Of a stretch of 64,000 bases of DNA, positions 42,973-64,000 are shown piece by piece (within the stretch, counting starts at the first letter, position 1; each line of letters opens with the position of its first letter). A program made the position numbers and the translations under genes. The notes beneath the pieces were generated by a model that made no database searches, was not told where the DNA came from, and saw only the letters and a program-made list of their open reading frames with translations. Origin of the DNA: Chthoniobacterales bacterium (GTDB lineage Bacteria; Verrucomicrobiota; Verrucomicrobiia; Chthoniobacterales; JACTMZ01); NCBI GenBank assembly GCA_044371145.1, contig JBILUI010000001.1, positions 3,497 through 67,496 on the forward strand, in the 5' to 3' direction.

Positions 42973-43001
42973 GGATAACGCAGCTTTTTTTCCGCCGGCG
43001 C

Positions 43002-45500: not shown

Positions 45501-46175
45501 TCATCGGCGGTAATAGCCAAAGAGCCTCATGTCGGAATCGTAGAGTCTCTCGATTCTGCCACGCGACAGGTCATCCAGGCCGCTGCGCCCGTCTTCCGGC
45601 AGCGAGGAATTCTGCCTGGGGATAAAATCGACTTTGAGGTCGAGCATGGACAGCATGCGCTCCAAATCCGATTCGAACGACTCCATGCGTCCGAGAAGAT
45701 CGATGTTCCCCAAGTCGACAAGCCGGGCCTGGCGGCGCAGATGGACATCGCAGCGATCGAGATCGAGGCCCTCGGCAAACGCGATGAATTCGCCGAGCTC
45801 TTTCATCCTTGCGTGATCGGAACTGCCGAATCCGAAATGGTTGCGCTCGAGCACGCGATCGCGCCAGCAGGACAAGAAGCGCTCGACGGGATCGCGGACG
45901 AAAGCGAACTTGAAATGATTCCGAACGGCTGCAGGGCGGTAATGCTGGAAGATACCGTTCTCCAGTTCGAAAACCGCACCGGCTTTTCGCAGGACGTCAA
46001 AGATCGTTCTCGTCCCGACTTTGGCCACGCGAAACCAGACGAACTTCGGTTCTCTTCCTATGGTCAGGTTGTAGCGCTGCTGGGAAGGGTAGAAACCCTG
46101 GAGAACCGCTCTCCTTGCGATGGCCTGGAAAGCGTCGTTGCGCCAACCGGGACGCGTTTCAGGAAGGTCGTGCAT
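45501..46175 (-). CDS. Sulfotransferase family 2 (carbohydrate sulfotransferase-like)
   Basis: WFRVAKVGTRTIFDVL (PAPS 5-prime-phosphosulfate loop), FAFVRDPVERFLSCW, DVHLRRQ and LGRMESFESDL, in the order typical of the Sulfotransfer_2 family. Confidence 0.8.
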   Translation of the reverse strand: MHDLPETRPGWRNDAFQAIARRAVLQGFYPSQQRYNLTIGREPKFVWFRVAKVGTRTIFDVLRKAGAVFELENGIFQHYRPAAVRNHFKFAFVRDPVERFLSCWRDRVLERNHFGFGSSDHARMKELGEFIAFAEGLDLDRCDVHLRRQARLVDLGNIDLLGRMESFESDLERMLSMLDLKVDFIPRQNSSLPEDGRSGLDDLSRGRIERLYDSDMRLFGYYRR

Positions 46176-49303: not shown

Positions 49304-50287
49304 TCAGCAACACACCCGCTTCTTGGCGATTAGATCGCGCAATTCGAAGCGCACCGGACAGCTGCTACGGAAAAGCCAGCCAACAATATGGCCCCACCCC
49401 CATCGGCGCCCCGCCCGCAGGTTTTTGCGCGTGGCTCGCCACCAACCCCGCCAAGTGCCGTCGAACTGACTCCACCAGACGACGTCCATTTGACGGTAAA
49501 CCATGCCCTGAAGTTCCGGGTAACGCTGCCGCATGACCCGACTTCCAAGCAGAGAGATTAGCCTGTCGATCCTGAGTCGCTTCTTTTCTTCCAAGCCAAG
49601 CGGCGACCAGATTCCAGCAGAGTGCTGCCGGTAGGCGCAGCCATCGAAGTCCTCGAAGCCCAACAGACCGTGTTCGGTCACGAGAAGATCGAACATGAAA
49701 TCATAGGGAGTCCGGAGGTAATAGTCGGGCGTTTCGCCCATAACACACGACTTGCGAAACACAAGCGACGCCGTCGGGTATCCTGATCGCAACTCGCGGA
49801 GACAATCGGCCTGCGTGTATTCGCCCCGGTAAGCAAGTCCGTCCCAGACAAAGGGAATGATATTCCCGCCCTCGTTGACGGCATGACCCCGGTGAAAGAC
49901 AGCGGCCCAAGCCGGTTCGGACTGCAGTCGGCGCACTTGACGCTGCAATTTGGATGGCTCGGTCCAAAAGTCATCTCCTTCGCAGAGGGCTATGAATTTT
50001 CCGCGAGCGGAGCGGAATGTCTCGATCCACATGGAGCCGAGTTCCCCGCGTGAATAGCGGTTCGAAGCCTGACGATTCCACCGGAAGCGATCCGGATGTG
50101 ACTCCGCATAAAAACTCAACAGGCCCGGTGTATTGTCGGTCGAAGCGTCGTCGTTGACTATGATCTCGAACGGAAAATCCGTCCTTTGGGCCAAAAAGGA
50201 GTCGACGGCCTGGCGGATGAAGCGCTCGTGGTTGTAAGCAAAGCACACCACGCTGACAAGCGGAGCGGTCCCGGACCGAGTGATCAT
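49304..50287 (-). CDS. Glycosyltransferase family 2 (paralogue of the C-terminal half of 55385..57493)
   Basis: APLVSVVCFAYNHERF, IIVNDDASTDNT and CEGDDFWT motifs. I chose the ATG at 50287 (MITRSGTAPL). The ORF-track start 50488 overlaps the DegT gene. Confidence 0.85.
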   Translation of the reverse strand: MITRSGTAPLVSVVCFAYNHERFIRQAVDSFLAQRTDFPFEIIVNDDASTDNTPGLLSFYAESHPDRFRWNRQASNRYSRGELGSMWIETFRSARGKFIALCEGDDFWTEPSKLQRQVRRLQSEPAWAAVFHRGHAVNEGGNIIPFVWDGLAYRGEYTQADCLRELRSGYPTASLVFRKSCVMGETPDYYLRTPYDFMFDLLVTEHGLLGFEDFDGCAYRQHSAGIWSPLGLEEKKRLRIDRLISLLGSRVMRQRYPELQGMVYRQMDVVWWSQFDGTWRGWWRATRKNLRAGRRWGWGHIVGWLFRSSCPVRFELRDLIAKKRVCC

Positions 50288-50319
50288 GTCTGGAAATCGG
50301 AGCTTTCCACCGCGGACGC

Positions 50320-51459
50320 TTAACTTAGCAGGCATCTGATGAGCCCGCAGATGCGTTCGACATGAGAGCAATCGACGGATTGCCCGGTGGGCAAAACGAT
50401 CACGCTTTCGGCGACAGCCTCGGAATGCACCAGATTGTTGGACCGCCCGGACAATTCGGTCCGATAAGGCTCCATGCGATGGCAGCACGGCCAGAAATAC
50501 CTTCGCGCGATGACGTTTTCCGCATGCAGCGCGTTGACGATCTCGTCGCGCGATTTCCGACAGACTTTGGGGTCAACTTCCAACACAACGTATTGAAAAT
50601 TGCTCATGTCCTGCGGGTTGTATCGCAGGAGCGAAAGACCCGGAAGATTCCGCAAACCGTCGCGGTAAGCCTCGTAGTTGGCACGGTTGCAGGCGACGAT
50701 CTCTTCCATTGCTTCGAGACTGGTCAGCCCCATGGCTGCGCCAATCTCGCTGAGTTTCCCGTTCACACCCAGACCCACAACATTGTCAAAGCCCGCGAAC
50801 CCGAAATTTCTCATCAAACGCATGCGGGCGGCCAGATCGTCATGGTTGGTCACAATCGCACCGCCCTCGAAACAATTGACGAATTTGGTCGCGTGAAAAC
50901 TGAACACTTCGCATTGCCCGAAGTGGCCGATCATGGTCCCGTCGTGGGAGCAGTGGAAGGCGTGCGAGGCGTCATACATGACTTTAAGTCCATGCCGCTG
51001 CGCCAGGAGATCAATCGCGTTGCTTTCGCAGGCCCTCCCCCACAAATGGACACCGACGATACCCGACGTCCTGTCCGTGATCAGCGGTTCAATGGCACGC
51101 GGATCGATGTTGTGAGTGCGCGGATCGATGTCGGCAAAAACCGGAGTCAGGCCCAGCCAGCGCAAAGCGTGGGCGGTCGCGACGAAGGTGTAGGACGGAA
51201 CAATGACCTCGCCGGTCAAACCGATGGCGCGCGCGGCAATTTCCAAGGCGACCGTTCCGTTGCAGACCGCCACGCAATGCTTGACCCCGATAATCTGCTG
51301 AATTCTGGATTCGAATTCCTGCACCAAAGGCCCGTGATTGGACAAAACACGCCGATCGAGAATTTGATCGATGCGCGCGTGCAAAGTTGCACGGTCCCCT
51401 ATGTTCGGTCGCCCGACATGAAGGGGTTCGGCAAAAATCGGTTTCCTTGGAGTCTTCAA
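50320..51459 (-). CDS. DegT/DnrJ/EryC1/StrS family sugar aminotransferase
   Basis: PLP-lysine context EVFSFHATKF, plus CNGTVALEIA and DASHAF. The TTG at 51459 forms a TTGA overlap with the upstream stop and gives (M)KTPRKPIFAEPLHVGRPNIG. The ORF-track ATG starts (51543/51516) overlap the upstream gene by 60 nt or more. Confidence 0.9.
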   Translation of the reverse strand: MKTPRKPIFAEPLHVGRPNIGDRATLHARIDQILDRRVLSNHGPLVQEFESRIQQIIGVKHCVAVCNGTVALEIAARAIGLTGEVIVPSYTFVATAHALRWLGLTPVFADIDPRTHNIDPRAIEPLITDRTSGIVGVHLWGRACESNAIDLLAQRHGLKVMYDASHAFHCSHDGTMIGHFGQCEVFSFHATKFVNCFEGGAIVTNHDDLAARMRLMRNFGFAGFDNVVGLGVNGKLSEIGAAMGLTSLEAMEEIVACNRANYEAYRDGLRNLPGLSLLRYNPQDMSNFQYVVLEVDPKVCRKSRDEIVNALHAENVIARRYFWPCCHRMEPYRTELSGRSNNLVHSEAVAESVIVLPTGQSVDCSHVERICGLIRCLLS

Positions 51460-52208
51460 TTCCGCTTCCCGCGCTTCGGTGCCACACGCCTGCCGGCGCC
51501 CCAGCAGCACCCGCATTTGCCCGTTGCCGGCGGTCGATACCACGGATCCTCGGCGGACGAAGCTCTCAAAATTCTCGCCGGATTCCCGGCGACCACCTTT
51601 TCGTCACCCACGTCGCGGATCACCACACTGCCGGCACCGACCATCGAACCGCATCCTATCGATACGCCCGGGGCCAAAACAGCGCCGGCGCCGACCCACG
51701 AGAAGCAGCCGACGTGGGCACCACCACAAAGCACGGCACCCGGGGAAACGTGGGCGAAACAGCCGATCGAGCAGTCATGCTCCACGATCGCGCCGGAATT
51801 GATGATGGTCCCGCGTCGCACGACCGCGCGCGCCCCCAACACGGAGCAAGGGCCGGCCACAACGCACTCTCCGGCCTCCGCGCTTGCGGCCACGACTGCC
51901 GAAGGATGGATCGCACGGCTACATCGCAACCCTGCCCGGCGCGCTTTGGCTTCGGAACGGAATCGACCCAATGAATTGCCCATGGCCGGCAGAAAAAGGG
52001 CGTCTGGACCGCCGGCTGCCGCCAGTGCTTTCTTCCAACCGTGGTGAACATGCTCTTCGGAAGCTGGCGCTGTATTCTCATCAACGCCAAAGAAAATACG
52101 CGCCCCGGGAAAGACCAGCCGCGCAATCTCCGCCACGAAACGGGCATGGCCCCCGGCGCCCCAGAGAAGAACCGGGAGCGACTCATGGTGAATTTTGCTC
52201 CGCTTCAT
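51456..52208 (-). CDS. NeuD/PglD-type LbH sugar N-acyltransferase
   Basis: N-terminal Rossmann-like LLWGAGGHARFV followed by hexapeptide repeats (GAIVEHDCSIGCFAHVSPGAVLCGGAHVG..VGAGAVLAPGVSIG..VGAGSVV). The ATG at 52208 forms an ATGA overlap with the upstream stop. Confidence 0.85.
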   Translation of the reverse strand: MKRSKIHHESLPVLLWGAGGHARFVAEIARLVFPGARIFFGVDENTAPASEEHVHHGWKKALAAAGGPDALFLPAMGNSLGRFRSEAKARRAGLRCSRAIHPSAVVAASAEAGECVVAGPCSVLGARAVVRRGTIINSGAIVEHDCSIGCFAHVSPGAVLCGGAHVGCFSWVGAGAVLAPGVSIGCGSMVGAGSVVIRDVGDEKVVAGNPARILRASSAEDPWYRPPATGKCGCCWGAGRRVAPKRGKRN

Positions 52209-53119
52209 GACTCCGCCAGCTTCGGGTTGAGCCATGTCTGGACACCGTCTTGGAAGTCTATCTCCCCGAATGGTGTGGCCTGTCTGGAACGCGTCGCAAA
52301 GTCGTTGATCTTGGTCCAACCGAGCGCGCCGAAGCATCGCCTCAGACCTTCCTCTATGTCACTTCCATGAGTGCCGATGTGGACTCTCTTGACCAGTCTG
52401 TCCAGTGACTCGCGCGAATCCTCGACAACCTCCAGTTCCGCACCCTGGATATCCATGTCCAACAAGTCGACCGGGCCCGTTTTGGCCAAGACGTCCGGAA
52501 GATTGACCACCCTGACTTTCGCGAGGTGCCGCTTTCCGTCGATCCGGTGCCTCCACCTCTTGAGCGCAGCCCGCAGCGCGTGAAAACCGTGGGATCTCAA
52601 GCTGGGAACTGCATCTTCGCGATACATGGCCGCGCCATAAGTCTCGCGCGGCTCGCCGACCTCAAACCAGGCACGACGGCCACGGGTGCGAGCGCCAACC
52701 GCTGCTTCAATGAGCACGTGTGCGGAGGGATCAATTCCGTTGTCGATGAAGTGTTGGGAGATATAGGAAAAGCGGGAGGGCTCCGCCTCGACGGCGACAA
52801 GGAGGGGCTGTACATCGGATGTCTGCCTGAGCGCCGCAGCTGCAGCGACAACCCACGCTCCGTAGCCGGCGCCCAGCTCGATCATGACAAAACGTCCGCG
52901 AGATGAATGGACCGCGCTGAGGATCTCAACCCATTCAAAATACGATTCGTTGAACTCCGGAAGATCACCAGGTTTTATTTTAACGCGCCAGCGTGACATA
53001 TCCATGAAGGATTCGCGTGTCTTCACCCCGAGTCCGTTCACAATGAGCCCTGGCTCCTGCGGGCGGAGCCTGAAGTCAAAGTGTGAAAATACAGGGTGGT
53101 GAGCGGGTGGCTTTTCCAT
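52205..53119 (-). CDS. FkbM family methyltransferase
   Basis: MIELGAGYGAW (motif I) and VDLLDMDIQGAELEVV, typical of FkbM. Confidence 0.8.
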   Translation of the reverse strand: MEKPPAHHPVFSHFDFRLRPQEPGLIVNGLGVKTRESFMDMSRWRVKIKPGDLPEFNESYFEWVEILSAVHSSRGRFVMIELGAGYGAWVVAAAAALRQTSDVQPLLVAVEAEPSRFSYISQHFIDNGIDPSAHVLIEAAVGARTRGRRAWFEVGEPRETYGAAMYREDAVPSLRSHGFHALRAALKRWRHRIDGKRHLAKVRVVNLPDVLAKTGPVDLLDMDIQGAELEVVEDSRESLDRLVKRVHIGTHGSDIEEGLRRCFGALGWTKINDFATRSRQATPFGEIDFQDGVQTWLNPKLAES

Positions 53120-53161
53120 AATAAGCTGATTACTGCGCCATGGTTGTGTGGTGCCGCCTCA

Positions 53162-53884
53162 TTATAAGCGACACGCACGCTGGATATCCACGTGGACGCA
53201 GGAGGCTCCGACGCGAAGCGCCAAATTGTAGCCGCGGTCCTTCATGAAACTTGCTATGCTTGAGTCTTGCGTTCCGAAGTCCTCCACAAGCACTACAGTC
53301 GGGCGGAAACGATCCCAGTTGTTGGAGCGAAGCACTTCGAAATCATGCCCCTCGCAATCGATGTCAAAAAGATCGATGGGGCGTCCGGGCTCCCAGTGCT
53401 CTCCAAGTAAGGCGCCCAGAGTAACGGGACGCATCACATCCCCCTTTTCCGCACCCGCGTGACCGGTGATGCGGTCGGAAGGCCTACCCGCTACGGAAAC
53501 AGCCAACTTTTCGTCACGGTCGGAAACTGCAGCGCAGACAAACTTGTCGCGGGGCCGCAAGAGACTGAAAGAAGCCTCATGCTGCAGATTCATGTCCACA
53601 ACAAGCCCGGACCCCCCGCGCTGATAAAATCTGTAAGTGTTTGAATGCTCGATCGGATGAAAACATCCGACATCGACGTAGGAATACGGCCGCTTGCAAC
53701 CGGCTTCATCAAGCAGCTTTTCCAAGACAAGATCCTCACCGCACTGCGAAAAAGACAGGCGGGCAAAAGGAAGACAGTGTGCAGGCCACTGGCTGTAGCG
53801 GACATGACAGGTCGCAGAAAGCAACCTCTGCGCCAACGATTGCAGCCGTTTTTGCAGAAACTGAGGAAGGTGCATGAGAATCAA
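53162..53884 (-). CDS. FkbM family methyltransferase
   Basis: FSQCGEDLVLEKLL, YVDVGCFHP and IDLFDIDCEGHDFEVL. The TTG at 53884 forms a TTGA overlap with the wzt stop; an ATG at 53875 is also possible. Confidence 0.8.
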   Translation of the reverse strand: MILMHLPQFLQKRLQSLAQRLLSATCHVRYSQWPAHCLPFARLSFSQCGEDLVLEKLLDEAGCKRPYSYVDVGCFHPIEHSNTYRFYQRGGSGLVVDMNLQHEASFSLLRPRDKFVCAAVSDRDEKLAVSVAGRPSDRITGHAGAEKGDVMRPVTLGALLGEHWEPGRPIDLFDIDCEGHDFEVLRSNNWDRFRPTVVLVEDFGTQDSSIASFMKDRGYNLALRVGASCVHVDIQRACRL

Positions 53885-55101
53885 ACCGAAAAATCCGCGG
53901 AAAGAATCGAAAAAGACTTCGGGAGAAAGTCGACAATCGGAGGGCGGGACACCTCATGGTAGCGATCGACTCGGCCGTTCGGCCAGAGGACCCAGCTCTC
54001 ACGTGCCCCGGACTTGATGAGCAGATGCCGTGCCCTGTCGGCATGAAACTGGGACAACTCGGGCGTGATCGCGTGGACGACGATATCGGGAGCAGCGCTC
54101 CAGGAGGGTTCCGTCCGCAGCGTCTGCATGCGCGCGTCCGAAACCCAACCCAAGTCGGCCACCACACAACCCTCGGATGTCTCAACCGGGGCATTGAGCA
54201 CCACCTGGCCTTTTCCCAAGCGGCGCGAAAACAGACCGGCCAATTTTCCCAAAAAAAGCCCGGTCCTGCTATCGGGCAGCCCGGGTTCGCCGGCCTGGGA
54301 GTCCGTCTTGAGGTGCAGCGACTCGAGATAGCGGTCGGTCACTTCGCGAGCGGTTCCTTCGGCGACCAAACGCCCCTCTTCGAGCAGAATTCCCTTTGTG
54401 CAGAGCTTAAGCACGCTTTGGCTCGAATGGCTGACAAACAGGATCGTAACCCCGGAATTTTTGATCTCGTCGATTCGGTTGAGGCACTTCTCCTGAAACT
54501 TGGCATCGCCGACAGCGAGCACTTCGTCGAGTACAAGTATTTCGGGCTCCAAATGAGCCGCCACGGCGAAAGCGAGGCGCACGCGCATACCGCTAGAGTA
54601 TCGTTTCACCGGCGTGTCCATGAAATCGGGTATCTCGGCAAATTCGGCAATTCGCTCGTAGCGCTCCTGAATTTCTTTGTCTCTCATGCCCAAAATGCTG
54701 CCATTGAGAAAAACGTTTTCCTTGCCTGTCATCTCGTGGTTGAAGCCGGTGCCCACTTCGAGAAGGCTGGCCACACGGCCCTTGATTTTCGCCGTTCCGG
54801 TCGTCGGGGAGGTAATACGCGAAAGCAGCTTCAGCAATGTTGATTTGCCGGACCCATTGCGTCCCATGACACCAACGATGTCGCCCTGTTCGATCTTGAA
54901 GCTCACGTCTTTCAGCGCCCAGAAGTCGTAGGGGGTCGGTAGGCGATCTGTCGCATGCTCGAATACGGACGAATGAGGATCCGGCTTGCCAAGCTTGCGA
55001 GCCACCCAGCTTTCGATTTGATCGACGAGCATTCGCCGGTTGATCACACCAAGGCGGTATTTTTTGGAGAGATTTTCGACTTTGATGACGGTGTCGGACA
55101 T
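53881..55101 (-). CDS. wzt: Polysaccharide ABC exporter ATP-binding protein (Wzt/TagH-type) with atypical C-terminal domain
   Basis: Walker A GRNGSGKSTLLK, signature YSSGMRVRLAFA, Walker B ILVLDEVLAVGD. About 150 extra C-terminal residues follow (see finding on Uma2-like resemblance). Confidence 0.92.
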   Translation of the reverse strand: MSDTVIKVENLSKKYRLGVINRRMLVDQIESWVARKLGKPDPHSSVFEHATDRLPTPYDFWALKDVSFKIEQGDIVGVMGRNGSGKSTLLKLLSRITSPTTGTAKIKGRVASLLEVGTGFNHEMTGKENVFLNGSILGMRDKEIQERYERIAEFAEIPDFMDTPVKRYSSGMRVRLAFAVAAHLEPEILVLDEVLAVGDAKFQEKCLNRIDEIKNSGVTILFVSHSSQSVLKLCTKGILLEEGRLVAEGTAREVTDRYLESLHLKTDSQAGEPGLPDSRTGLFLGKLAGLFSRRLGKGQVVLNAPVETSEGCVVADLGWVSDARMQTLRTEPSWSAAPDIVVHAITPELSQFHADRARHLLIKSGARESWVLWPNGRVDRYHEVSRPPIVDFLPKSFSILSADFSV

Positions 55102-55384
55102 GGGAAGGAAAGTTTGCGGTGTTCAGTTGGCGGTTTTCAGTAAAACGAATCGAACGATCAAAGAGATAGCAAGCCGCAGTTGGCAGTATTCGGTGTTCGG
55201 CTTTGACAAGGGGTGCGACGACCTATCTACGATGCGCTGCGGTTCGCAAAGCCTCGGTGCCGCATTGGCGGACGCCTGTGCAGCCCGCTATCGTCAGCAG
55301 TTATCGCACGGGGTTCGGTTGAAAGCATAATGCGATCGATTTAATCGGGGATGAGGGTGTCGTCTTCGCCTTGCCGTCGCGAAA

Positions 55385-57493
55385 TCAGTCATCGCCTGTG
55401 TCGCGGGTGTCGACCAGGCGGCGGAAGCAACGGAGTGGTTTGGTAATCTTCCAAGAGAGGCTTTGCTTCATCGACTGCCATCCTGTGGCCTCTCTTTTGA
55501 TCTTGCGTCTCACCATTTCGAGGTGGCCGCGAATGCACTGCCCGTAAACTCGTCGCAGTTCATCATCCAGCAGCAGTTCGTTGAACATTTCGTAGTTTCG
55601 GAGGTAGCGGCCGACTTTGCTGCCGCCAATCCAGGCACCGGAACCGTGCTGACGATAGACAGACATGTTCGCATCCAAGACACCCAAATCACCGTGTTTG
55701 GTGATAGCTATATCCAGAGTAGTATCGCGCGGTCGGTTCAGAAGGTAGGCAGGCATGTCCTTGAGCGCAGACCGGCGGAAAACGAGAGAAGCTGTCGGGT
55801 AGCCGCTGAGCAACCACTCCACGCAATCTTGCCGGGTGTAGCGTCCGGCTTGCCGGTTTATACAGGAATCCATGAGAACTTTGCCGCTTTCATCAATCAC
55901 CCTAGCGTCATGGATACAGCCGACGCAGTCGGGATTCGTGCGCAAAAAGTCGATCTGCTTCTGAAGTTTGTGCGGGCTGGTCCAGTAATCGTCACCCTCG
56001 CACACGGCAATGAACTCGCCCCGGCAATGCGCCAGACAAGAAAGCATGGGCGATTCTCCACGCTCGCGCGAGTTCGTTGCGTAGAAAACCGGACGGATGA
56101 TTCTCCGGTTAGTTGCAGCGTGTCGCCGGATAATCTCATCCGTTCCATCGGTGGATGCGTCATCTTGCAAGACGATCTCAACGCGGAAATCCGTCTCCTG
56201 CATGAGAAAACCGGCGATGGCGTCGCCGATCATGTGCGCCTGGTTGTAAGTGTAGCAGCAGATGCTGACGAGGGGAGCTGTCCCATCCGACCAGTCGTGA
56301 CTCGTGATCGCAACAGGCGCCCCTAGTTGGGGGGCGGCATCAGGAGGATCGATCCGGGAGCCGACAATCCGCGCGCCGAGCGCTTTGTGAACAGCCTCGC
56401 AAACCCGGCGCACTGCTTCCTCGCTGATGGCTTGACCGGTGGGCAAGACAATCACTTTGGCCGCGACCTGTTCAGTCGCCGGCAAGCTTGTCTCAGAGCC
56501 TACACGGGCCGAGAGATAAGGCTCCATCCGATGGCAGCCCCGCCAAAAATACCGACGGGCGAGAATGCCTTCGGCGTGCAATGCCGCGACTAACTCATCG
56601 CGGCTCATCATGCAGTGCGCAGGGTCGACTTCGAGGACAATATATTGAAAATTCCCCTGCTGTTGCGTGTCATAGTCCAACACACGAATCCCGGGGAGAT
56701 CCGTCAGCAGCTGACGATACAGCTCGTAGTTGCGCCGGTTCTTCTCCACGAACCCGTCCATCGACTCGAGGTTGCACAGTCCCATCGCCGCGCAAACTTC
56801 CGGCATTTTCGCATTGATGCCCGGGCCGACAACCGAGTCATGGCCGTCGAAACCGAAATTTCTCATCAGCCGCATCTTGTCGGCCAGCGCGTCGTCGTTG
56901 GTGGTGATGACACCGCCCTCGAAAGTGTGCACGAATTTCGTTGCGTGGAAACTGAACACCTCGCAGTCGCCGAAGTTGCCAACCATCGTGCCGCCGCGCG
57001 AGCACCCGAAGGCATGCGACGCGTCATAGATAACTTTGAGGTCGTGTTGCCGCGCGATCCCTTCGATCGCCGCCGTGTCGCAAGGAGTTCCCCACGCATG
57101 GACACCGACCACGGCTGACGTGCGGGGCGTGACAGCATGCGCGATCTTCACGGGATCGATGTTGTGCGTCGCCGGACCGATGTCGACAAAGACAGGTTCC
57201 AATCCGATCCATTCGAAGGCATGCGCCGTGGCCACGAAAGTGAAGCTCGGCATGATCACCTCGCCCCGCAGCCCGAGCGCCTTCGCCGCGATCTGCAATC
57301 CAAGCGTTCCGTTGCAAACCGCTACCGCGTGCGGCACACCCAAAGTGTCGCAAATCTTGCGTTCGAATTGCTGAACAAGAGGTCCTCCGTTCGTCACCGG
57401 GCGCGGCGCCAGCAGATCTTGCACCCGCTGAAGATAAGCTCTCTCGTCGGGCATGTTGGGCAAACCGACGTGGAGTTTGGTCGCAGGTCTCAT
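55385..57493 (-). CDS. Fusion protein: DegT-family sugar aminotransferase (N) + GT2 glycosyltransferase (C)
   Basis: The first ~375 aa carry CNGTLGLQIA, DASHAF and EVFSFHATKF. After a linker come APLVSICCYTYNQAHM, IVLQDDASTDGT and CEGDDYWT. Each half aligns with the separate genes at 50320..51459 and 49304..50287. Confidence 0.88.
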   Translation of the reverse strand: MRPATKLHVGLPNMPDERAYLQRVQDLLAPRPVTNGGPLVQQFERKICDTLGVPHAVAVCNGTLGLQIAAKALGLRGEVIMPSFTFVATAHAFEWIGLEPVFVDIGPATHNIDPVKIAHAVTPRTSAVVGVHAWGTPCDTAAIEGIARQHDLKVIYDASHAFGCSRGGTMVGNFGDCEVFSFHATKFVHTFEGGVITTNDDALADKMRLMRNFGFDGHDSVVGPGINAKMPEVCAAMGLCNLESMDGFVEKNRRNYELYRQLLTDLPGIRVLDYDTQQQGNFQYIVLEVDPAHCMMSRDELVAALHAEGILARRYFWRGCHRMEPYLSARVGSETSLPATEQVAAKVIVLPTGQAISEEAVRRVCEAVHKALGARIVGSRIDPPDAAPQLGAPVAITSHDWSDGTAPLVSICCYTYNQAHMIGDAIAGFLMQETDFRVEIVLQDDASTDGTDEIIRRHAATNRRIIRPVFYATNSRERGESPMLSCLAHCRGEFIAVCEGDDYWTSPHKLQKQIDFLRTNPDCVGCIHDARVIDESGKVLMDSCINRQAGRYTRQDCVEWLLSGYPTASLVFRRSALKDMPAYLLNRPRDTTLDIAITKHGDLGVLDANMSVYRQHGSGAWIGGSKVGRYLRNYEMFNELLLDDELRRVYGQCIRGHLEMVRRKIKREATGWQSMKQSLSWKITKPLRCFRRLVDTRDTGDD

Positions 57494-57544
57494 AAACCTC
57501 TTTTTCTTATTGCCGCTGAGATGAGATACCGAAACACGCTACGC

Positions 57545-58210
57545 TCATATGGTCACCGAACGAGCCGGCACGCCGAAGACGGTCGATCCCGCCGGAACAT
57601 CGCGCGCGACCACGGACCCGGCTCCTACCGTTGCCCCGTCGCCGATGCGCGCGCCGGGAAGGATACTCGCATGCGGGTGAATGGTGACCCCGTCTCCAAC
57701 GATGACGCCACCACCGGCGAAAACAAAGGCGCCGACGTGGCAGCATTTGCCGAAACGCACATCGTGGCCGGCGGTCACATGTGCCGTCAGAAAAGTGTCA
57801 GCGCCGATGGAGACATCGCACGAAACAACGCAATACGGGCCGACCACGGCGCCGTCGGCCATTTCGACACCTCCGCCGATTTTGGCCGACGGTTCGCGCA
57901 AGACGGCAAACTTCGCACCGCGGCCACGCAACATGTCCGCGTATTTTCGACGATCGACCGAATTACCGATGGCGCAGACGAAAAGATCGTTCTCGCGCGG
58001 CCGGTAAAGCTGGGGCGTGCCGATGACGGGCGCTCCTACTGGGTCAATTCCGGGCCGGTCATCCAGAAATCCGGCAAGCTGCCAAACACAGCGTTCTCCC
58101 TCCGCCGATTGGATCCCGGCGGCCAAGTCGCGCACCTCGCGACCAAAGGCGCCCGCGCTCACGATGATGAGATTTTTCTTCACCGCAACGGCTGCACGAG
58201 ACCTTTCCAA
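57545..58210 (-). CDS. NeuD/PglD-type LbH sugar N-acyltransferase
   Basis: KKNLIIVSAGAFGREV followed by hexapeptide repeats (GPYCVVSCDVSIGADTFL..VGAFVFAGGGVIVGDGVTI..IGDGATVGAGSVV). TTG at 58210; a GTG at 58183 ((M)KKNLIIV) is an alternative start. Confidence 0.85.
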   Translation of the reverse strand: MERSRAAVAVKKNLIIVSAGAFGREVRDLAAGIQSAEGERCVWQLAGFLDDRPGIDPVGAPVIGTPQLYRPRENDLFVCAIGNSVDRRKYADMLRGRGAKFAVLREPSAKIGGGVEMADGAVVGPYCVVSCDVSIGADTFLTAHVTAGHDVRFGKCCHVGAFVFAGGGVIVGDGVTIHPHASILPGARIGDGATVGAGSVVARDVPAGSTVFGVPARSVTI

Positions 58211-58214
58211 AAAC

Positions 58215-59261
58215 TCAGACCTCGATAATTGGAGGACAAACCACCGGTCCGACTTCGCAAGCCAAGGTTCCCCATGAAAGCCCCACTCCGAACCCGCAGA
58301 GAAGAAGGCGAAGCCCTCCGTTCAGGAGTCGCGCGCCGAGTTGATCGACCATGGTGAGCGGGATCGTTGCCGAACTCGTGTTGCCGAAATCGGCCAGCGT
58401 GCCCGGACATTTTCCAGCATCCAACCTCAGCGATTTAACGATGGTATCGTTGATCAGCCGGCTGGCCTGGTGAAAAACGAAAGCATCGACTGAATCCGCC
58501 GACCATCCCGCGGCCTCCAAGGCAGCGCGCACGGCAGCGGGAACGACACGAACGGAGAAATTGAAAACGTCGGCACCCTTCATCTGATACTGCGTGTCGA
58601 AATATATCCGTCCGAGAACATCTTCCTTTGATGGAAGCGCCATCCCGTCCAAGCCGGGCTTGCCGCCGGAGCGCCTCTCCATGATGTAGTCCCATCCGCT
58701 CCCGTCGGTATGGAGCGAAAAGTGCATGGGCGCGGCCGCAGCGCGGCGCTCCAAGCCGACCGCAACTGCCGCATCGCCGAAGAGAGGCGCCCGAGGCGAC
58801 GCGGGATTCGGCTTTCCTGCTGCATCGCCGACGACAAGCAAAACCTTCGATGCCTCCGACGGGGCCAATAAACTCCCCGCGACGAGCATCCCATAGGGAA
58901 AACCGGAACACCCCAGATTGATGTCGAAAGCGGCACAGTCGGTCGAAAGACCGAGACGATGCTGCAGGATGCAGGCAGTGGACGGGTAGGCCACGTCGCC
59001 TGATTGCGTGACCACGACCAAAGCCTCGACTTCACTCTTATCCCAAACTAAGTCGGCGAGAATGCGCTCTGTGGCAAAGCGGGCGAGGTCGGAAAAGAAC
59101 AAGTCCGGCGGGCAGATACGCCTACGCAGAACACCGGTCGCGGACGAAAACCTCCGCCGCGCCTCCGGAGACTCGTAACCAGACTCCTCCACCGTCTCCA
59201 CGCTGGCAGGAACCGCCGCGCAGAGGCCGGCTAAATGGATGCCATGAAGAATGCTCTGCAC
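58215..59261 (-). CDS. 3-oxoacyl-ACP synthase III (FabH-like KAS III)
   Basis: Catalytic Cys in DINLGCSGF, His in FVFHQAS, Asn in FGNTSSATIP. The GTG start shares one nucleotide with the ACP stop. Confidence 0.88.
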   Translation of the reverse strand: MQSILHGIHLAGLCAAVPASVETVEESGYESPEARRRFSSATGVLRRRICPPDLFFSDLARFATERILADLVWDKSEVEALVVVTQSGDVAYPSTACILQHRLGLSTDCAAFDINLGCSGFPYGMLVAGSLLAPSEASKVLLVVGDAAGKPNPASPRAPLFGDAAVAVGLERRAAAAPMHFSLHTDGSGWDYIMERRSGGKPGLDGMALPSKEDVLGRIYFDTQYQMKGADVFNFSVRVVPAAVRAALEAAGWSADSVDAFVFHQASRLINDTIVKSLRLDAGKCPGTLADFGNTSSATIPLTMVDQLGARLLNGGLRLLLCGFGVGLSWGTLACEVGPVVCPPIIEV

Positions 59262-59497
59262 TAAAGTTTGCGCTGCACGAGCGCGATTAGATCCTTCAGA
59301 GAGCAGCAGGATTCCAACTCTTCACCCGAGACCTGCACGCCATAATCAGCGTAAACCTCCGCAACAAGCATGACAGCAGTTAACGAGTCCCAGCCCTCCA
59401 AGTCGCGCAGAACGCTGGTCAGAGCCAAACCCTGAGGAGCTTGTGCAAAGGCATTGTGCACCGCCGCGAAAAACTTTTCCTGATCGATCTCAGCCAT
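59261..59497 (-). CDS. Acyl carrier protein
   Basis: 78-aa acidic protein with the phosphopantetheine-attachment context LEGWDSLTAVML. Confidence 0.85.
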   Translation of the reverse strand: MAEIDQEKFFAAVHNAFAQAPQGLALTSVLRDLEGWDSLTAVMLVAEVYADYGVQVSGEELESCCSLKDLIALVQRKL

Positions 59498-59625
59498 GAT
59501 ATTCCAGCTCGTTCAATTGACTCGCGGAAAAACGCCTGAGAGGCTTGCAAGCATATCAGAATGCCGAGTCAGTTGGCTCGGAGACGTCTGCACTTGCCAC
59601 GCGCCCGGGGCGCGTCCCCCTGCGC

Positions 59626-59714
59626 TCAAAGGATGTCCACGCAGGTCCGCTGCGTCCGGTTGAACATAACCAAGCCCACCAGCACGACGGCGATGCTGAC
59701 AAAGGAGCTGAAAC
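59626..59714 (-). pseudogene. Orphan duplicate of the wzm 3-prime end
   Basis: The minus strand encodes ...SSFVSIAVVLVGLVMFNRTQRTCVDIL-stop. The last 23 codons are identical in protein to the end of wzm (60456..60524). The DNA differs at 12 of those codons, all synonymously (hand alignment). Confidence 0.75.
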
Positions 59715-59732
59715 GCAAGCAGCAGGAAAACA

Positions 59733-60167
59733 TCAGGGCGTCAGCAGTTCCACGCGCAGACCTTGGGACCGGAACAAATCAAAATCCGCGTCACGCGTAA
59801 CCCAAGTGCAACCGTGCTCGAAGGCAAGCGCTGCATGCTGGGCATCCGCCACCAGTTTGCCTTTGGCCGACACAGACTCGCAAAATGACCTCATTATGGT
59901 CCAATGCCGCTCGTCGGGTCCGAGCACAACACGACCGCGTGCAGCTAAGATCGAATCGATCACCGCAAGGGCCTGGGAAAGTGGAGTGGGCCTTGGCTGA
60001 AAGCCAGGATGTGTTACCACACGGACGAAGGACGCTGCCACCAAGAGCGAAAGCGCGAAAGGTTCGCCACCATTGACCAGACGCTCCATCCACTCCCGGT
60101 AAAAATCATGATCCGGGTCCTCGCGACGATGCGCGTAGACCAGAGTGTTCACGTCGGGCATGAGCAT
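59733..60167 (-). CDS. vapC: PIN-domain toxin VapC (type II toxin-antitoxin)
   Basis: 144 aa. Acidic PIN residues are in the expected contexts (MPDVNTLV, ...DAQHAALA, VTRDADF). It follows a small antitoxin ORF after a 5-nt gap. Confidence 0.88.
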   Translation of the reverse strand: MLMPDVNTLVYAHRREDPDHDFYREWMERLVNGGEPFALSLLVAASFVRVVTHPGFQPRPTPLSQALAVIDSILAARGRVVLGPDERHWTIMRSFCESVSAKGKLVADAQHAALAFEHGCTWVTRDADFDLFRSQGLRVELLTP

Positions 60168-60172
60168 CCTTC

Positions 60173-60391
60173 TCAGCGCCCATCATCGCGCAACGCGGCC
60201 AACTGCGACGGGGTTTGATGGATACCCGCAGGCTCGCCGAAAACAGGCATGGAGAACTGCTCCCTCCCCGTCCCGCTCCGGCGGTCGGAAAACAGGTGCT
60301 GTCGCAGGGCGGTGTTGACCAGATCGCTCAAGGTTTTGCCGGTGTTGGCCGCCTCGCGCTTGGCATGGCGAAAGACTTGATCGTTCAACAC
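60173..60391 (-). CDS. vapB: VapB-type antitoxin (ribbon-helix-helix)
   Basis: LNDQVFRHAKREAANTGKTLSDLVNTALRQHL is an RHH pattern. The GTG at 60391 is the first canonical start, but the stop-free in-frame upstream codons read KRITLV, which would complete the RHH beta-strand. The true start is therefore uncertain. Confidence 0.75.
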   Translation of the reverse strand: MLNDQVFRHAKREAANTGKTLSDLVNTALRQHLFSDRRSGTGREQFSMPVFGEPAGIHQTPSQLAALRDDGR

Positions 60392-60411
60392 GAGGGTTAT
60401 TCTCTTACAAA

Positions 60412-60425
60412 CATACGTACGTATG
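60412..60425. promoter_or_regulatory. Perfect 14-bp palindrome CATACGTACGTATG, candidate VapB operator
   Basis: The palindrome lies 21 nt upstream of the vapB start. A minus-strand TTGACA lies at 60441..60436, just after the wzm stop. RHH antitoxins typically autoregulate through promoter palindromes. Confidence 0.4.
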
Positions 60426-60455
60426 CGGACAGCGTTGTCAAGCGGCCTGGCTTCC

Positions 60456-61313
60456 TCAGAGAATATCGACGCACGTCCTCTGCGTCCGGTTGAACATAAC
60501 GAGGCCGACCAACACTACCGCGATGCTGATAAAAAAGCTGACAACGATTTGCCAAAGATAGACGGTGCCATGGCCCATGAAGGCGAAGCGGAACGCCTCG
60601 ATGATAAAAACCATCGGATTGAGCGCGTAGACCCAGCGCCAGTTTTCCGGGACCATACTCAGCGGGTAAACCACGCAGCTGGCATACATCCAAAGCTGCA
60701 TGAAAAAGCTGAGCATGATTTGCAGGTCGCGAAAACGGGTGGTCACGGCGGAGACCATGCAGCCGACGCCCAAGCCGAGCGCGGCCATTTGCAACAAAAG
60801 CACGGGCAACACGACGATGCGCCAACCCATGGCGATGTCCGCCCCTTGGTGGAAATAATACACGTAAAAAATGAGAAAAAGCACCATTTGCATTCCGAAG
60901 CCGATGAGATTCGCAATAAGTTGAGAGATAGGCACGACCAGTCGTGGGAAGTAGACCTTGTCGAACAATCCGCGGTTGGAACTAAAGGTGGCCGCCGTAT
61001 TGGTGACGCAGTTGTTGAAGTAGCCCCAGCAAACGGTGCCGGCCAAAAAGAAGAGCAGGGGGGGTATTTCTCCGGTGGAAATCTTGGCGATCTTGTTGAA
61101 AACGAGGGTGAACATCAGGCTGGTGAACAGGGGCTGAATCACATACCAAGCCGAGCCAAGGATCGTCTGCTTGTAGCGCGAGACAAAATCGCGATGCACC
61201 AGGCGCATGATAAGTTCCCGGTATTCCCAAATTTCGCGGAAAGGGATATGGAGCAGTTTGTGCTCGGACGTGATGACCGTCGTCCACTGCGGGTTTTGGA
61301 CTGTTGAATTCAT
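60456..61313 (-). CDS. wzm: Polysaccharide ABC exporter permease (ABC-2 type, Wzm)
   Basis: 285 aa. N-terminal REIWEYRELIMRLVHRDFVSRYKQTILGSAWYVIQPL is typical of Wzm/TagG/KpsM permeases. About six hydrophobic segments. Confidence 0.92.
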   Translation of the reverse strand: MNSTVQNPQWTTVITSEHKLLHIPFREIWEYRELIMRLVHRDFVSRYKQTILGSAWYVIQPLFTSLMFTLVFNKIAKISTGEIPPLLFFLAGTVCWGYFNNCVTNTAATFSSNRGLFDKVYFPRLVVPISQLIANLIGFGMQMVLFLIFYVYYFHQGADIAMGWRIVVLPVLLLQMAALGLGVGCMVSAVTTRFRDLQIMLSFFMQLWMYASCVVYPLSMVPENWRWVYALNPMVFIIEAFRFAFMGHGTVYLWQIVVSFFISIAVVLVGLVMFNRTQRTCVDIL

Positions 61314-61568
61314 GGAGAAAATCGAGTCGGTTGTTGGCGGTATCGGTTGACTAAGGTCTGTCTCGTTTCACTTGGCTATCGGGCGGCGGAGCCAGAAGAC
61401 ACGAATCATGAACCGTCGCATGCCGTCGTTGATTGCACAATCAGTCCAAGCTACCGCCCTTGGTCGGCAGCGGTGCGAACCGCGGGACCGGCAACTTCAC
61501 CTTGTTGTTGTGTTCCGACATTCCTTCGATCGCATCCCCGTCGGAGAGGGCTGCGGTCAGCCAACGGC

Positions 61569-62084
61569 TCAGAGCTTCATGAAGCGGATGAGCCAGGGGA
61601 GAATCTTGCGCCCTTTGTCGAGCCAGTGCTTGAGGCGGTCGATGCGGTCGCGGGTGGCGCGGCGTTCTTTGGGCGGCAACTCTGCGAGCGATTCCTCCAT
61701 GCGCCGGATCCTTTCCGCTGCCATATCGATGCGAGGCTGGAGCTCGTCCTTGATGAAGGCCGTCGCGAAACGGCTGAGCTCCAGGTCGGCCACATAGTGG
61801 TCGCGACGATCACCACGCTCGTAAACCACCCGCACCGCCCCGAAAGAACGCAGGAGCTTCAGGCCTTGGCTGGCCGCGCCCAGGCTGATGCCGAGCCGGC
61901 CCATGATCTCGTCCATGGCCATCGGTTTGGGGGCCACAAAAAGCAGCCCGTAGATTTCACCAACCGATTTGGGCAATCCTATGAGGCGCAAGAAGTTGAT
62001 AAACATCTCGATCGCCTCGACCTCCAACTCGGTCAGGCGACTCTTGTCTTCCTCCACAAAAAGCGGCGGCGGCACAGTGCGCAT
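61569..62084 (-). CDS. GbsR/MarR-type winged-helix transcriptional regulator
   Basis: Winged-helix region PMAMDEIMGRLGISLGAASQGLKLLRSFGAVRVV followed by a helical C-terminus. I chose the ATG at 62084 (MRTVPPPLF). The ORF-track start 62141 extends into an A/T-rich promoter-like stretch. Confidence 0.72.
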   Translation of the reverse strand: MRTVPPPLFVEEDKSRLTELEVEAIEMFINFLRLIGLPKSVGEIYGLLFVAPKPMAMDEIMGRLGISLGAASQGLKLLRSFGAVRVVYERGDRRDHYVADLELSRFATAFIKDELQPRIDMAAERIRRMEESLAELPPKERRATRDRIDRLKHWLDKGRKILPWLIRFMKL

Positions 62085-62287: not shown

Positions 62288-64000
62288 ATGAAAGCAATAA
62301 CTTCCTGGCGGCTGGCTCTCGGAGGAGCTGCCCTGTCGGCCGCCTACTGTGCCGCGTTGCTCCTTCCACAGGCCCGCATGGTCGGCGAGCCAGCGACCCT
62401 TCGCGACTACGCCGTGATCTGGTCGCTCGTGGCTTGCGTGTTCAACACCGGAGTCCTGGCAGTGTTGGCAATTGTCTGCCCCTGGTGGGCTGGAGGAAAG
62501 ATCTCCGAGACCGGCCCACTCAAAACAGAGGAAAGAAGTTCATCATGGTTCTGGGTTGGTGTGACGGCGGCTGCGATTGCACTCTTCGCTATGACATTAC
62601 CGAGACTCGGCCAAAGTCTCTGGGACGATGAGGAGACTTCTCTGCGATTCTCCATCTTGGGGCGCTATCTTCGCGTACAGCCGGATGGCCGGCCGCAGTT
62701 TCACGAGGCTTCGTGGCTTGAGACACTTTTTTACTACAAGCAGCCAAACAACCACGTATTTCACAACATCCTTTCGCGCGTCAGCAACTCAACGTGGAGA
62801 AGCCTGAAGCGCCCGAGCGGGCTGCAGTTCAATGAGGAGGCCGTGCGCTTGCCGGCTTTTGTGGCTGGAATCGCGGGGATTTTCTCCCTCGCACTGTTAC
62901 TCCGGGCGATGGGTTACCCAAAGGCGGGTTTGGCCGCTGCTTGGCTGTTGGCTTTTCACCCTTGGTACCAGCGCTATGTCTGTGAGGCGCGTGGGTACAG
63001 TCTTGTCTTGGCCCTGCTTCCGGTGGCGACCCTTGTCTGGCGGGAAGCCTTGCGCACCGGGCGATGGCAATGGTGGTCGGTATTCGCGCTCGTGCAATTC
63101 GTCCTAGTTTGGACCTACCCGGCTGTTCTCTTTGTGCTGCTTCCTTTGAATCTTGCCACGCCTTGGCTTGCACTCAGAGGACGCGATTTGGCCAAACCGC
63201 CCTATGTCTCGCTGGGAAGATGGTTTTGCTGCCAATCGCTGGCCGCTGTCGCGATGATGCAGGTCGCCGCTCCGCTCCTGCCGCAGGCTCGCGAGTATTT
63301 CCGCCCGCTGGACTTCCCACCGATAGATTCCCGCTGGCTCGCCGACTTCCTCAGTTATTTGGCTGCCGGACTGCCATGGGCAACGGATGAACCCGGGCAA
63401 ATACCATCTCATCCCCAGCTTGGCGAAATGGTAGCCGCGTCGCCCACGACATGGCTTGGTGTGGGCATGGCAGCGTTGTTGCTTGCTGCCTGGGGAATGG
63501 TGACAGTGGCAAAGCACAACGAAACCGCTTGGAAATTGGTTTTCGGCTGCACACTGCTCGGGCCAATGGTCCAAATGGTGTACGCTGCGTGGCATCGGCT
63601 TACGTTCTGGGAGTGGTATATCCTCCACGTGCTTCCGTGGGCGATAGCGCTGACATGTGTCGGCTTGGATCAAATGTCGGCACTCACCCACTCCCGTCTT
63701 CCCGGATTCAGGGCTGCTCCTAGAATGATCGTTCTGCTTGCGGTCTTTTCTTACGCATGGCTAACCGAACCGGTCAGACGATGGCAATCGGCGAGGCCGG
63801 TTACGCCGACACGCGATGCCGTCCTGTGCACACGCCGCAATTTGGATCCCGACGACCCCGAGAACAGGCGCATTATGACCGCTGGCCTGACAAATCCACC
63901 TGCCTGCTACGATGCGCACGTTTTTTTCGTCAAAGATTTGGGTGAACTCGTATTGCTCTGCCGCATGTCCGATCTCACGGGCAGGCCACTGTGGCTCAAC
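62288..64000 (+). CDS. Uncharacterised GT-C-like membrane protein, paralogue of 23791..25863 (3-prime end beyond the window)
   Basis: ATG at 62288 followed by 571 stop-free codons to the window end (hand-translated; not in the ORF track). It shares SLWDDE, PNNHVFHNIL, RLPAF.AG, ARGY.LV, WQWW and WTYPAV.F with the 23791 gene. Confidence 0.7.
   Translation, partial: MKAITSWRLALGGAALSAAYCAALLLPQARMVGEPATLRDYAVIWSLVACVFNTGVLAVLAIVCPWWAGGKISETGPLKTEERSSSWFWVGVTAAAIALFAMTLPRLGQSLWDDEETSLRFSILGRYLRVQPDGRPQFHEASWLETLFYYKQPNNHVFHNILSRVSNSTWRSLKRPSGLQFNEEAVRLPAFVAGIAGIFSLALLLRAMGYPKAGLAAAWLLAFHPWYQRYVCEARGYSLVLALLPVATLVWREALRTGRWQWWSVFALVQFVLVWTYPAVLFVLLPLNLATPWLALRGRDLAKPPYVSLGRWFCCQSLAAVAMMQVAAPLLPQAREYFRPLDFPPIDSRWLADFLSYLAAGLPWATDEPGQIPSHPQLGEMVAASPTTWLGVGMAALLLAAWGMVTVAKHNETAWKLVFGCTLLGPMVQMVYAAWHRLTFWEWYILHVLPWAIALTCVGLDQMSALTHSRLPGFRAAPRMIVLLAVFSYAWLTEPVRRWQSARPVTPTRDAVLCTRRNLDPDDPENRRIMTAGLTNPPACYDAHVFFVKDLGELVLLCRMSDLTGRPLWLN

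Follow-up and report, generated by a model that had tools for sequence, protein, structure and literature searches.

In Pseudomonas syringae pv. tabaci 6605, the viosamine island comprises vioA, vioM, vioT, vioS, vioB, vioR and acp (Yamamoto et al. 2011, PMC3927599), and deletion mutants combined with mass spectrometry identified its product as D-Quip4N(3-hydroxy-1-oxobutyl)2Me, the residue that terminates the flagellin glycan (PMC3927599). In this island, vioA encodes the aminotransferase, vioS a 3-oxoacyl-acyl carrier protein (ACP) synthase of type III (KAS III), vioB a left-handed beta-helix (LbH) protein and vioR a 3-oxoacyl-ACP reductase; deletion of vioA, vioB, vioT or vioR abolishes the terminal residue, and the modified viosamine limits chain elongation (PMC3927599). 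Every gene of the island has a homologue in the orfA-orfN region of Pseudomonas aeruginosa PAK, where orfA-E encode a DegT protein, an ACP, a KAS III, a ketoreductase (KR) and an LbH protein (PMC3927599, Table 1). In Flavobacterium psychrophilum, the O-polysaccharide (O-PS) genes wfpC-wfpG, with two KAS and one KR, have been assigned to a 3,5-dihydroxyhexanoyl (C6) group (Cisar et al. 2019, PMC6519341), and the PglD homologue WfpG is predicted to transfer the acyl chain from the O-PS-specific ACP WfpD to a 4-amino sugar (PMC6519341). ACP and FabG genes are likewise noted in surveys of flagellin glycosylation islands from enterobacteria and Aeromonas (PMC4875605, PMC7874193). Here, we describe a module of this type in a 64,000-nucleotide stretch (the window) of contig JBILUI010000001.1, from a Chthoniobacterales bacterium of the Verrucomicrobiota (assembly GCA_044371145.1). 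It consists of a private ACP, a KAS III and an LbH acyltransferase (LbH#2) followed by a fusion of a DegT aminotransferase and a family 2 glycosyltransferase (DegT::GT2). From its gene content and relatives, the function of the module is probably to make a short acyl group, whatever its oxidation state, on the ACP/KAS pair and to transfer it by LbH#2 to an amino sugar.

A previous annotation of this DNA made from the letters alone, hereafter the sequence-only reading, had claimed a private ACP, a KAS III with a Cys/His/Asn triad, an LbH acyltransferase and a DegT::GT2 fusion, and their coordinates, strand and domains all check out:

59261-59497, minus strand: private ACP, 78 amino acids (Pfam PP-binding, 26.7 bits against a gathering score of 20.8)
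58215-59261, minus strand: KAS III-like condensing enzyme, 348 amino acids (Pfam ACP_syn_III and ACP_syn_III_C)
57545-58183, minus strand: LbH#2, NeuD/PglD/VioB-type N-acyltransferase, 212 amino acids (Pfam PglD_N and Hexapep)
55385-57493, minus strand: DegT::GT2 fusion, 702 amino acids (Pfam DegT at residues 20-368, GT2 at residues 410-579)

The ACP, KAS III and LbH#2 genes thus lie head to tail on the minus strand, with DegT::GT2 downstream. The ACP is acidic (isoelectric point, pI, 4.3) and contains the motif GWDSLTAVML, with the phosphopantetheine-site Ser within GWDSL. The triad of the KAS III (C118/H264/N294) does not vary across 14 diverse homologues, nor across ~140 family members. The KAS III is translationally coupled to the ACP: in TTTAGTGCAG, the ACP stop codon TAG (59263-59261) and the KAS start codon GTG (59261-59259) have one G in common, and this shared nucleotide, already pointed out from the sequence, is read directly in the DNA of the junction (...AAACTTTAGTGCAGAGC..., a 1-nt overlap, TAGTG). 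The identical overlap is found in three related loci (L004, L087 and L088). DNA identical to that of the window is present in assembly GCA_041447075.1 and in two read-archive contigs, and the gene callers on the identical public contigs start LbH#2 at GTG 58183, which gives 212 amino acids instead of the 221 of the full open reading frame (ORF). LbH#2 scores 158.5 bits against TIGR03570, the model of the NeuD/PglB/VioB family (cut-off 160.8), and LbH#1, from a second cassette of the window described below, scores 165.9. The top matches of LbH#2 in the PDB are VioB (7txp), the acetyltransferase domain of PglB (PglB-ATD, 4m98) and PerB (4ea7); its GHD motif, which holds the putative catalytic His, lines up with SHG of VioB and DHD of PglB-ATD, and H140 and D141 are invariant among cassette-linked LbHs.

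The sequence-only reading had called for a co-occurrence search of ACP-KASIII-LbH-DegT neighbourhoods. When one genome per species was scanned, KAS III relatives were found in at least 594 species; the counts that follow refer to the 80 best of these loci, all from different species, in which ORFs were called and searched with small profiles derived from the window plus three loci related to it (L- and P-numbers designate the collected related loci and homologues). An ACP gene lies directly upstream of the KAS gene in 74/80 loci and, because the loci come from different species, this adjacency is more than chance. A classical short-chain dehydrogenase/reductase (SDR) ketoreductase is encoded on the same strand within 5 kb of the KAS in 70/80 loci, nearly always as the next gene, and an LbH is found near the KAS in 41/80, 34 of them from the same subfamily as LbH#2. 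DegT genes (18/80) and a second KAS (28/80) are less frequent. The usual proteobacterial order is DegT-ACP-KAS-KR-(KR)-LbH-(LbH) and that of Flavobacterium ACP-KAS-KR-KAS-LbH, three Flavobacterium loci (L058, L074 and L082) falling in the KAS family of the window; many Bacteroidota have ACP-KAS-(KR)-GT2-GNAT, with GNAT and GT2 in place of the LbH. Precomputed Pfam annotations give ACP-KAS-KR-Rieske-LbH-FkbM for the flagellin locus L005 and ACP-KAS-KR-LbH-sulfotransferase for L004, a Solemya symbiont locus.

The absence of a ketoreductase or dehydratase from the window, also part of the sequence-only reading, was confirmed in three ways: (i), Pfam scans of ~55 window ORFs detected no adh_short, KR, SDR or hotdog dehydratase domain (nor any FabD or phosphopantetheinyl transferase); (ii), a tblastn search of the window with two cassette-type ketoreductases gave a best E of 4.8; and (iii), the largest gap in the gene map, 762 bp, contains only an opposite-strand methyltransferase-like fragment. 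The missing KR is a stable property of one clade and not a gap in the window. In a neighbour-joining tree, the KAS of the window and those of five KR-less ACP-KAS-LbH loci (L086, L003, L087, L006 and L088) form one clade, sister to the KR-containing L004 and L089. Four of these proteins (P0023/L086, P0030/L003, P0049/L087 and P0060/L088) are 52-69% identical to the window's KAS, and their loci, as well as L006, have exactly the set ACP-KAS-LbH and lack any SDR within 7-8 kb; homologues at or below 51% identity (P0062/L089 and P0067/L004) have a KR. The closest named relatives belong to metagenome-assembled genomes of Terrimicrobiaceae and Verrucomicrobiales, and the clade is apparently Verrucomicrobial. 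FkbM methyltransferases, sulfotransferases, DegT, GT2 and ATP-binding cassette (ABC) ATPase genes recur near KR-less modules: FkbM genes adjoin the module in L086, L087 and L005, and homologues of the fusion's GT2 domain do so in L087, L088, L006 and L007. A second KR-less clade, with a GNAT partner, occurs independently in Bacteroidota, and KR loss that has become fixed throughout clades suggests that the product has changed. The condensing enzymes differ as well: the HQAN motif is HQAS in the window, with Ser at this position in 58% of the KR-less clade and Asn invariant in the other groups, and KR-less and KR-containing KAS also differ at pocket positions 87, 142 and 205, the triad being invariant. 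The HQAS motif and the pocket differences yield no substrate prediction.

LbH#2 belongs with the ACP/KAS pair rather than with the other LbHs of its own window: it is 43-56% identical to cassette-linked LbHs (L003 and L004) vs ~30-33%, over partial length only, to LbH#1 and LbH#3. Whether KAS, ACP or LbH is considered, the window's five closest loci are always the same KR-less ones, and a comparison of distance matrices (mirror-tree) gave r = 0.85 for KAS-ACP and r = 0.52 for KAS-LbH, with 0/2000 permutations as high. ACP, KAS and LbH#2 are co-inherited as a unit, a correlation that does not by itself show physical interaction. Conversely, an alignment of the LbH#2 subfamily was used to retrieve 80 metagenomic loci, and 42/80 contain ACP or KAS genes; among those with at least 2.5 kb on both sides (n=22), 12 have an ACP or KAS and 10 have neither. 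In the window's own LbH clade, all loci (8/8) are ACP/KAS-linked.

The acceptor is most likely dTDP-4-amino-4,6-dideoxy-D-glucose (viosamine), because the DegT domain resembles DesI and the structural relatives of LbH#2 act on 4-amino-4,6-dideoxyhexoses. The DegT domain matches DesI (PDB 2po3) at 5.3e-113 and perosamine synthetases at 8.6e-57, and its best NCBIfam model is the DesI equivalog TIGR04427 (471 bits, below the cut-off of 650). DesI is a dTDP-4-keto-6-deoxyglucose 4-aminotransferase, and VioB, the acetyltransferase domain of PglB and PerB are all N-acetyltransferases of 4-amino-4,6-dideoxyhexoses.

The module is embedded in a minus-strand glycan cluster of ~56 kb (5633-61313) with ~20 glycosyltransferases and several methyltransferases, flanked by housekeeping genes (HflX, MiaA). 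The parts of this cluster that bear on export and acylation are:

60456-61313, minus strand: Wzm, ABC-2 permease (ABC2_membrane domain)
53881-55101, minus strand: Wzt, ABC-transporter ATPase, 406 amino acids (ABC_tran domain)
52205-53884, minus strand: two FkbM-family methyltransferases (Methyltransf_21)
49304-52208, minus strand: cassette 1, LbH#1 - DegT#1 - GT2#1, no ACP/KAS, paralogous to cassette 2 (the ACP/KAS-containing one)
47879-49273, 32409-33818 and 25853-27286, minus strand: three DltB/AlgI-like membrane-bound O-acyltransferases (MBOATs)
22063-23703 and 21128-22087, minus strand: two AlgX-like SGNH proteins
19148-20218, minus strand: AT3 acyltransferase

That cassette 1 lacks the ACP/KAS pair had been noted before and was confirmed here. 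The two cassettes are 59% identical in DegT and 42% in GT2, and LbH#1 and LbH#2 share 33% identity over 144 residues, the C-terminal half alone aligning. Paralogous cassettes with divergent LbHs fit the use of the same amino sugar with a different N-acyl group, and these figures lend support to the earlier suggestion that the two cassettes probably install different groups. As an observation of its own, the combination of three MBOATs, two AlgX-like proteins and an AT3 acyltransferase in one locus predicts heavy O-acylation of the polysaccharide.

We propose the following sequence of events for cassette 2. The private ACP would be phosphopantetheinylated by the housekeeping AcpS and malonylated by FabD. 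The KAS III would then condense a short acyl-CoA, most simply acetyl-CoA, with malonyl-ACP to give 3-oxobutanoyl (acetoacetyl)-ACP, a product predicted because the Cys-His-Asn triad is intact and a KR immediately follows the KAS in relatives. The DesI-like DegT domain would supply dTDP-4-amino-4,6-dideoxy-D-glucose, LbH#2 would acylate the 4-amino group of this sugar from the pantetheine thioester, and the fused GT2 would attach the N-acyl sugar to the polysaccharide exported by Wzm/Wzt. Cassette 1, with its different LbH and no ACP/KAS, would modify the same kind of sugar with acetyl or another group derived from CoA. Inferred here are the primer, the use of acyl-ACP as donor, the identity of the sugar and the final acyl group; the N-acylation with a short ACP-borne acyl group that the sequence-only reading had put forward is supported, as far as sequence goes, by co-inheritance, synteny and the P. 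syringae precedent.

Several observations weigh against parts of this scheme, in particular against the proposed direct use of acyl-ACP by LbH#2. The protein ends with the LbH and has no C-terminal helical ACP-docking domain such as that of LpxA/LpxD, whose models it matches at 40-53 bits (cut-offs 207-243). In a comparison of pI and net charge, LbHs linked to fatty-acid-synthesis-like genes were no more basic (median pI 6.7) than those lacking such a link (7.3). A subclade of the LbH#2 subfamily (33-45% identity) is DegT-only, with no ACP/KAS within 2.5-5 kb (mostly the 10/22 loci above), which means that the fold alone does not dictate an ACP donor; the subclade refutes the idea that the subfamily is exclusive to ACP/KAS loci. 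The subfamily is thus strongly, not exclusively, associated with fatty-acid-synthesis-like genes, and the association is strict only in the window's LbH clade. Searches of open-access literature, in which most subscription journals are missing, turned up no biochemically proven acyl-ACP-dependent PglD-family LbH. On the side of the condensing enzyme, the E. coli FabH residues that contact CoA (W32/R36/R151) are unconserved in the KAS family, as judged against an E. coli FabH sequence not taken from a database, and sequence alone reveals neither the KAS primer nor the chain length. Finally, the organism's FabG, AcpS and FabD lie outside the window.

Which acyl group is installed depends on the fate of the 3-oxo group. 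Comparison of the described systems suggests that gene content encodes the acyl group: one KAS with a KR seems to give 3-hydroxybutanoyl, two KAS with a KR dihydroxyhexanoyl and, by the same logic, one KAS without a KR would give 3-oxobutanoyl. Because the clade lacks a ketoreductase, we tentatively regard 3-oxobutanoyl as the most likely group, and it may well stay unreduced, giving N-(3-oxobutanoyl)viosamine, with a probability that nonetheless falls short of even. We know of no report of an N-(3-oxobutanoyl) group on a bacterial glycan, and no N-acetoacetyl sugars were found in the same open-access literature.

A different outcome, which we consider possible and somewhat unlikely, is that the housekeeping FabG acts in trans on acetoacetyl-ACP and reduces it to (R)-3-hydroxybutanoyl, so that the absence of the KR has no chemical consequence. 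FabG enzymes show little selectivity among ACPs and acetoacetyl thioesters, and nothing in the window opposes such a reaction. Moreover, 3-hydroxybutanoyl is the documented N-acyl group for this type of module (PMC3927599). However, 88% of the related loci retain a KR directly after the KAS, which suggests that FabG is normally insufficient, and the loss of the KR, fixed in the clade and again independently in Bacteroidota, reads more like a change of product. In P. syringae, the chromosomal FabG did not rescue the vioR deletion (PMC3927599); the housekeeping enzyme is thus no substitute there, which favours a 3-oxo product in KR-less modules.

The rest of the probability goes to other readings, for example an acetyl-CoA-using LbH or a transacylase-only KAS. 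In the first, LbH#2 would be an acetyl-CoA-dependent VioB/PerB-type N-acetyltransferase and the ACP/KAS pair would serve another acceptor through an MBOAT or the AT3 protein. DltB-type MBOATs do take their substrate from a carrier protein, the locus contains three MBOATs and an AT3, and the LbH#2 subfamily includes members without a neighbouring ACP/KAS. Yet the conserved unit is exactly ACP-KAS-LbH in 6/6 loci of the KR-less clade, most loci have an LbH or GNAT N-acyltransferase after the module, and Pfam scans found no DltA-like adenylating (AMP-binding) enzyme in the window; we consider this arrangement improbable. A Dlt-like use of the ACP by MBOATs was itself rejected, since MBOATs do not co-occur with the module (homologues in only 2/86 other ACP-KAS loci).

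We are equally doubtful that the KAS III acts as a non-condensing acyl-CoA:ACP transacylase that loads the ACP for the LbH, in which case no beta-keto group would form and no KR would be needed. FabH enzymes have an acyl-CoA:ACP transacylase side activity, and CerJ, DpsC and ChlB6 are KAS III-like pure acyltransferases; the lack of a ketoreductase and the replacement of HQAN by HQAS, as in over half of the clade, would be in keeping with such a role. However, dedicated acyltransferases of this kind usually replace Asn or Cys, and in the KR-less clade the Cys-His-Asn triad and the oxyanion-hole glycine are invariant. In addition, a KR comes right after the KAS in L004 and L089, the sister loci, whose KAS is ~50% identical to that of the window; this points to a beta-keto product in the ancestor.

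Finally, that the pair is the organism's housekeeping FabH and AcpP, present in a glycan locus by accident, is hardly credible: general family resemblance (ACP_syn_III domains, PP-binding) speaks for it, but the KAS III scores 197.1 bits against PRK09352 (cut-off 249) and 158 against TIGR00747 (cut-off 292.1), staying below every NCBIfam FabH cut-off and far below all equivalogs, the ACP scores 19 bits against the AcpP model NF002148 (cut-off 71), Pfam scans detected no plsX, fabD, fabG, acpP-type or fabF fab-operon neighbours in the window, the same pair occurs in glycan or flagellin-glycosylation loci of many phyla, and a long branch of the neighbour-joining tree separates E. coli FabH from the cassette KAS III family. 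By these scores and this phylogeny, the latter a check that the sequence-only reading had named, the ACP/KAS pair is not housekeeping and not dedicated to bulk fatty-acid synthesis.

It is tempting to speculate that the N-acyl sugar, possibly methylated, may be a chain-terminating cap at the non-reducing end, because wzm and wzt flank the cassette, two FkbM methyltransferase genes adjoin it, Wzt carries an extension and the modified sugar limits the chain in P. syringae. Matches of Wzt to Wzt/TagH structures in the PDB span residues 52-261 only, leaving a ~145-residue C-terminal extension (~262-406) with no Pfam or PDB sequence match; this extension may be a carbohydrate-binding domain recognizing such a terminal cap. 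The complete picture, in which the KR-less clade puts N-acetoacetyl on viosamine, the LbH takes acetoacetyl-ACP directly and the sugar is a cap read by the Wzt extension, is on the whole unlikely, with perhaps one chance in a few of holding in all its parts.

The remaining features of the window are:

45501-46175 (Sulfotransfer_2) and 42193-43239 (Sulfotransfer_1), minus strand: two sulfotransferases
59733-60391, minus strand: VapB-like antitoxin (72 amino acids) and PIN-domain VapC toxin (144 amino acids)
6730-7302, minus strand: third hexapeptide-repeat acyltransferase, 190 amino acids, no PglD_N
~62288-64000, plus strand: GT-C/PMT_2-like membrane glycosyltransferase, cut by the window end
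36268-36732, plus strand: 154-residue ORF resembling, by eye, the C-terminal half of a class I S-adenosylmethionine-dependent methyltransferase

In L004, L086 and L087, too, sulfotransferases adjoin the related ACP-KAS-LbH modules, suggesting that the glycans are sulfated. The VapB/VapC pair sits between wzm and the ACP gene and is identically placed in L001 and L002, the identical public contigs. The gene of the 190-residue hexapeptide acyltransferase is at the far end of the locus, where two GT4 genes overlap it with their ends. The GT-C/PMT_2-like gene encodes 653 amino acids in L001 (5013-6974), and the window has a second PMT_2-like gene at 11420-13102. The 154-residue ORF sits in the sole sizeable gap of the operon (35948-36709) and may be a remnant or a short antisense gene. 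A promoter/terminator scan of 55000-61700 gave counts no higher than those of shuffled sequence.

Some of the collected loci show further elaborations of the module. In the flagellin-adjacent L005/L008 (7767-17044), two Rieske-type oxygenases are interleaved with two LbHs and three FkbM methyltransferases, suggesting further oxidation of the acyl or sugar moiety. In L089 (7744-12398), a set of LuxC, LuxE, AMP-ligase and KR genes lies beside an ACP-KAS-KR-LbH-LbH cassette; this 'fatty aldehyde' set as a whole is also reported for Aeromonas and enterobacterial flagellin glycosylation islands. In seven Bacteroidota loci (L024, L032, L033, L040, L053, L064 and L081), ACP-KAS is followed by a GT2 of ~305 amino acids (assigned by Pfam scan in L024, L040, L064 and L081 and by ORF size and order in the others), and L024, L040 and L064 also have a GNAT (Acetyltransf_3) that replaces the LbH. 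All of these Bacteroidota loci except L040 (six of seven) are without a ketoreductase and represent an independent KR-less lineage.

Serotype, in O-antigens and flagellins alike, and immune recognition depend to a large extent on the N-acyl groups of amino sugars, and one portable module (ACP, KAS III, an optional KR or second KAS, and an N-acyltransferase) underlies their non-acetyl forms in hundreds of species of many phyla. The KR-losing clade is a natural place to seek a 3-oxoacyl modification, and its three-protein set is convenient for a biochemical test of acyl-ACP use by a PglD-type LbH; if the proposal is true, LbH#2 would be the first PglD-family member shown to use an acyl-ACP. For annotation, a gene called 'FabH' or 'acetyltransferase' in such a glycan locus is not to be taken as a sign of fatty-acid synthesis or simple acetylation.

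How, then, does the window compare with known systems? The best PDB match of its KAS is 4efi (2.2e-54), a Burkholderia 3-oxoacyl-ACP synthase for which our search found no functional annotation. This protein belongs to the cassette-type KAS III family and has the same triad; in BLAST against the collected loci, it is 57% identical to the second KAS of the Massilia locus L027 and 47-50% to the KAS of L019, L035 and L069, and it falls in a basal subclade. With E. coli FabH/AcpP, the window's pair shares the thiolase fold, the Cys-His-Asn triad and the presumed reaction of acyl-CoA with malonyl-ACP to acetoacetyl-ACP; it differs in its below-cut-off model scores, its unconserved CoA contacts, the absence of a fab operon and a predicted product diverted to a glycan. 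Like LpxA and LpxD, which are trimers using acyl-ACP and had been cited by the sequence-only reading as precedents for such donors, LbH#2 is a left-handed beta-helix, but it has a PglD-type N-terminal domain, lacks their C-terminal helical domain and is not a member of their family. Vibrio cholerae O1 also has a private ACP in its O-antigen cluster, where rfbK-rfbO provide the tetronate N-acylation of perosamine; there, activation is by an acyl-CoA-ligase-like enzyme, not a KAS III, and the acyl group is different. The F. psychrophilum locus resembles the window in being a polysaccharide locus with a PglD-type LbH and a private ACP, its assignment being a prediction, and differs in having two KAS, one KR, a C6 acyl group and UDP-Qui2NAc4N as the sugar.

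The closest likenesses are found in the flagellin work on P. aeruginosa and P. syringae, since which the module type has been known. The PAK order DegT-ACP-KAS-KR-LbH matches many of the 80 loci (e.g. L011, L018, L020, L030 and L045); unlike the window, the PAK island has a KR and a flagellin context, and its glycan structure is not fully solved. By published gene content, the P. syringae island shares with the window a DegT-type 4-aminotransferase, a private ACP, a KAS III, a VioB/PglD-type LbH, a methyltransferase and a dedicated glycosyltransferase. The two differ in that P. syringae has the ketoreductase VioR and modifies flagellin, with a different gene order and an unfused DegT, whereas the window encodes an ABC-transporter-exported polysaccharide and a DegT fused to its glycosyltransferase. 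The association of an ACP, a KAS III and a PglD/VioB-type LbH is therefore a known and widespread module type, and the idea of the sequence-only reading is essentially its published model. To this, the present locus makes an incremental addition: a stable loss of the KR, an ABC-transporter polysaccharide context in Verrucomicrobiota and the DegT::GT2 fusion.

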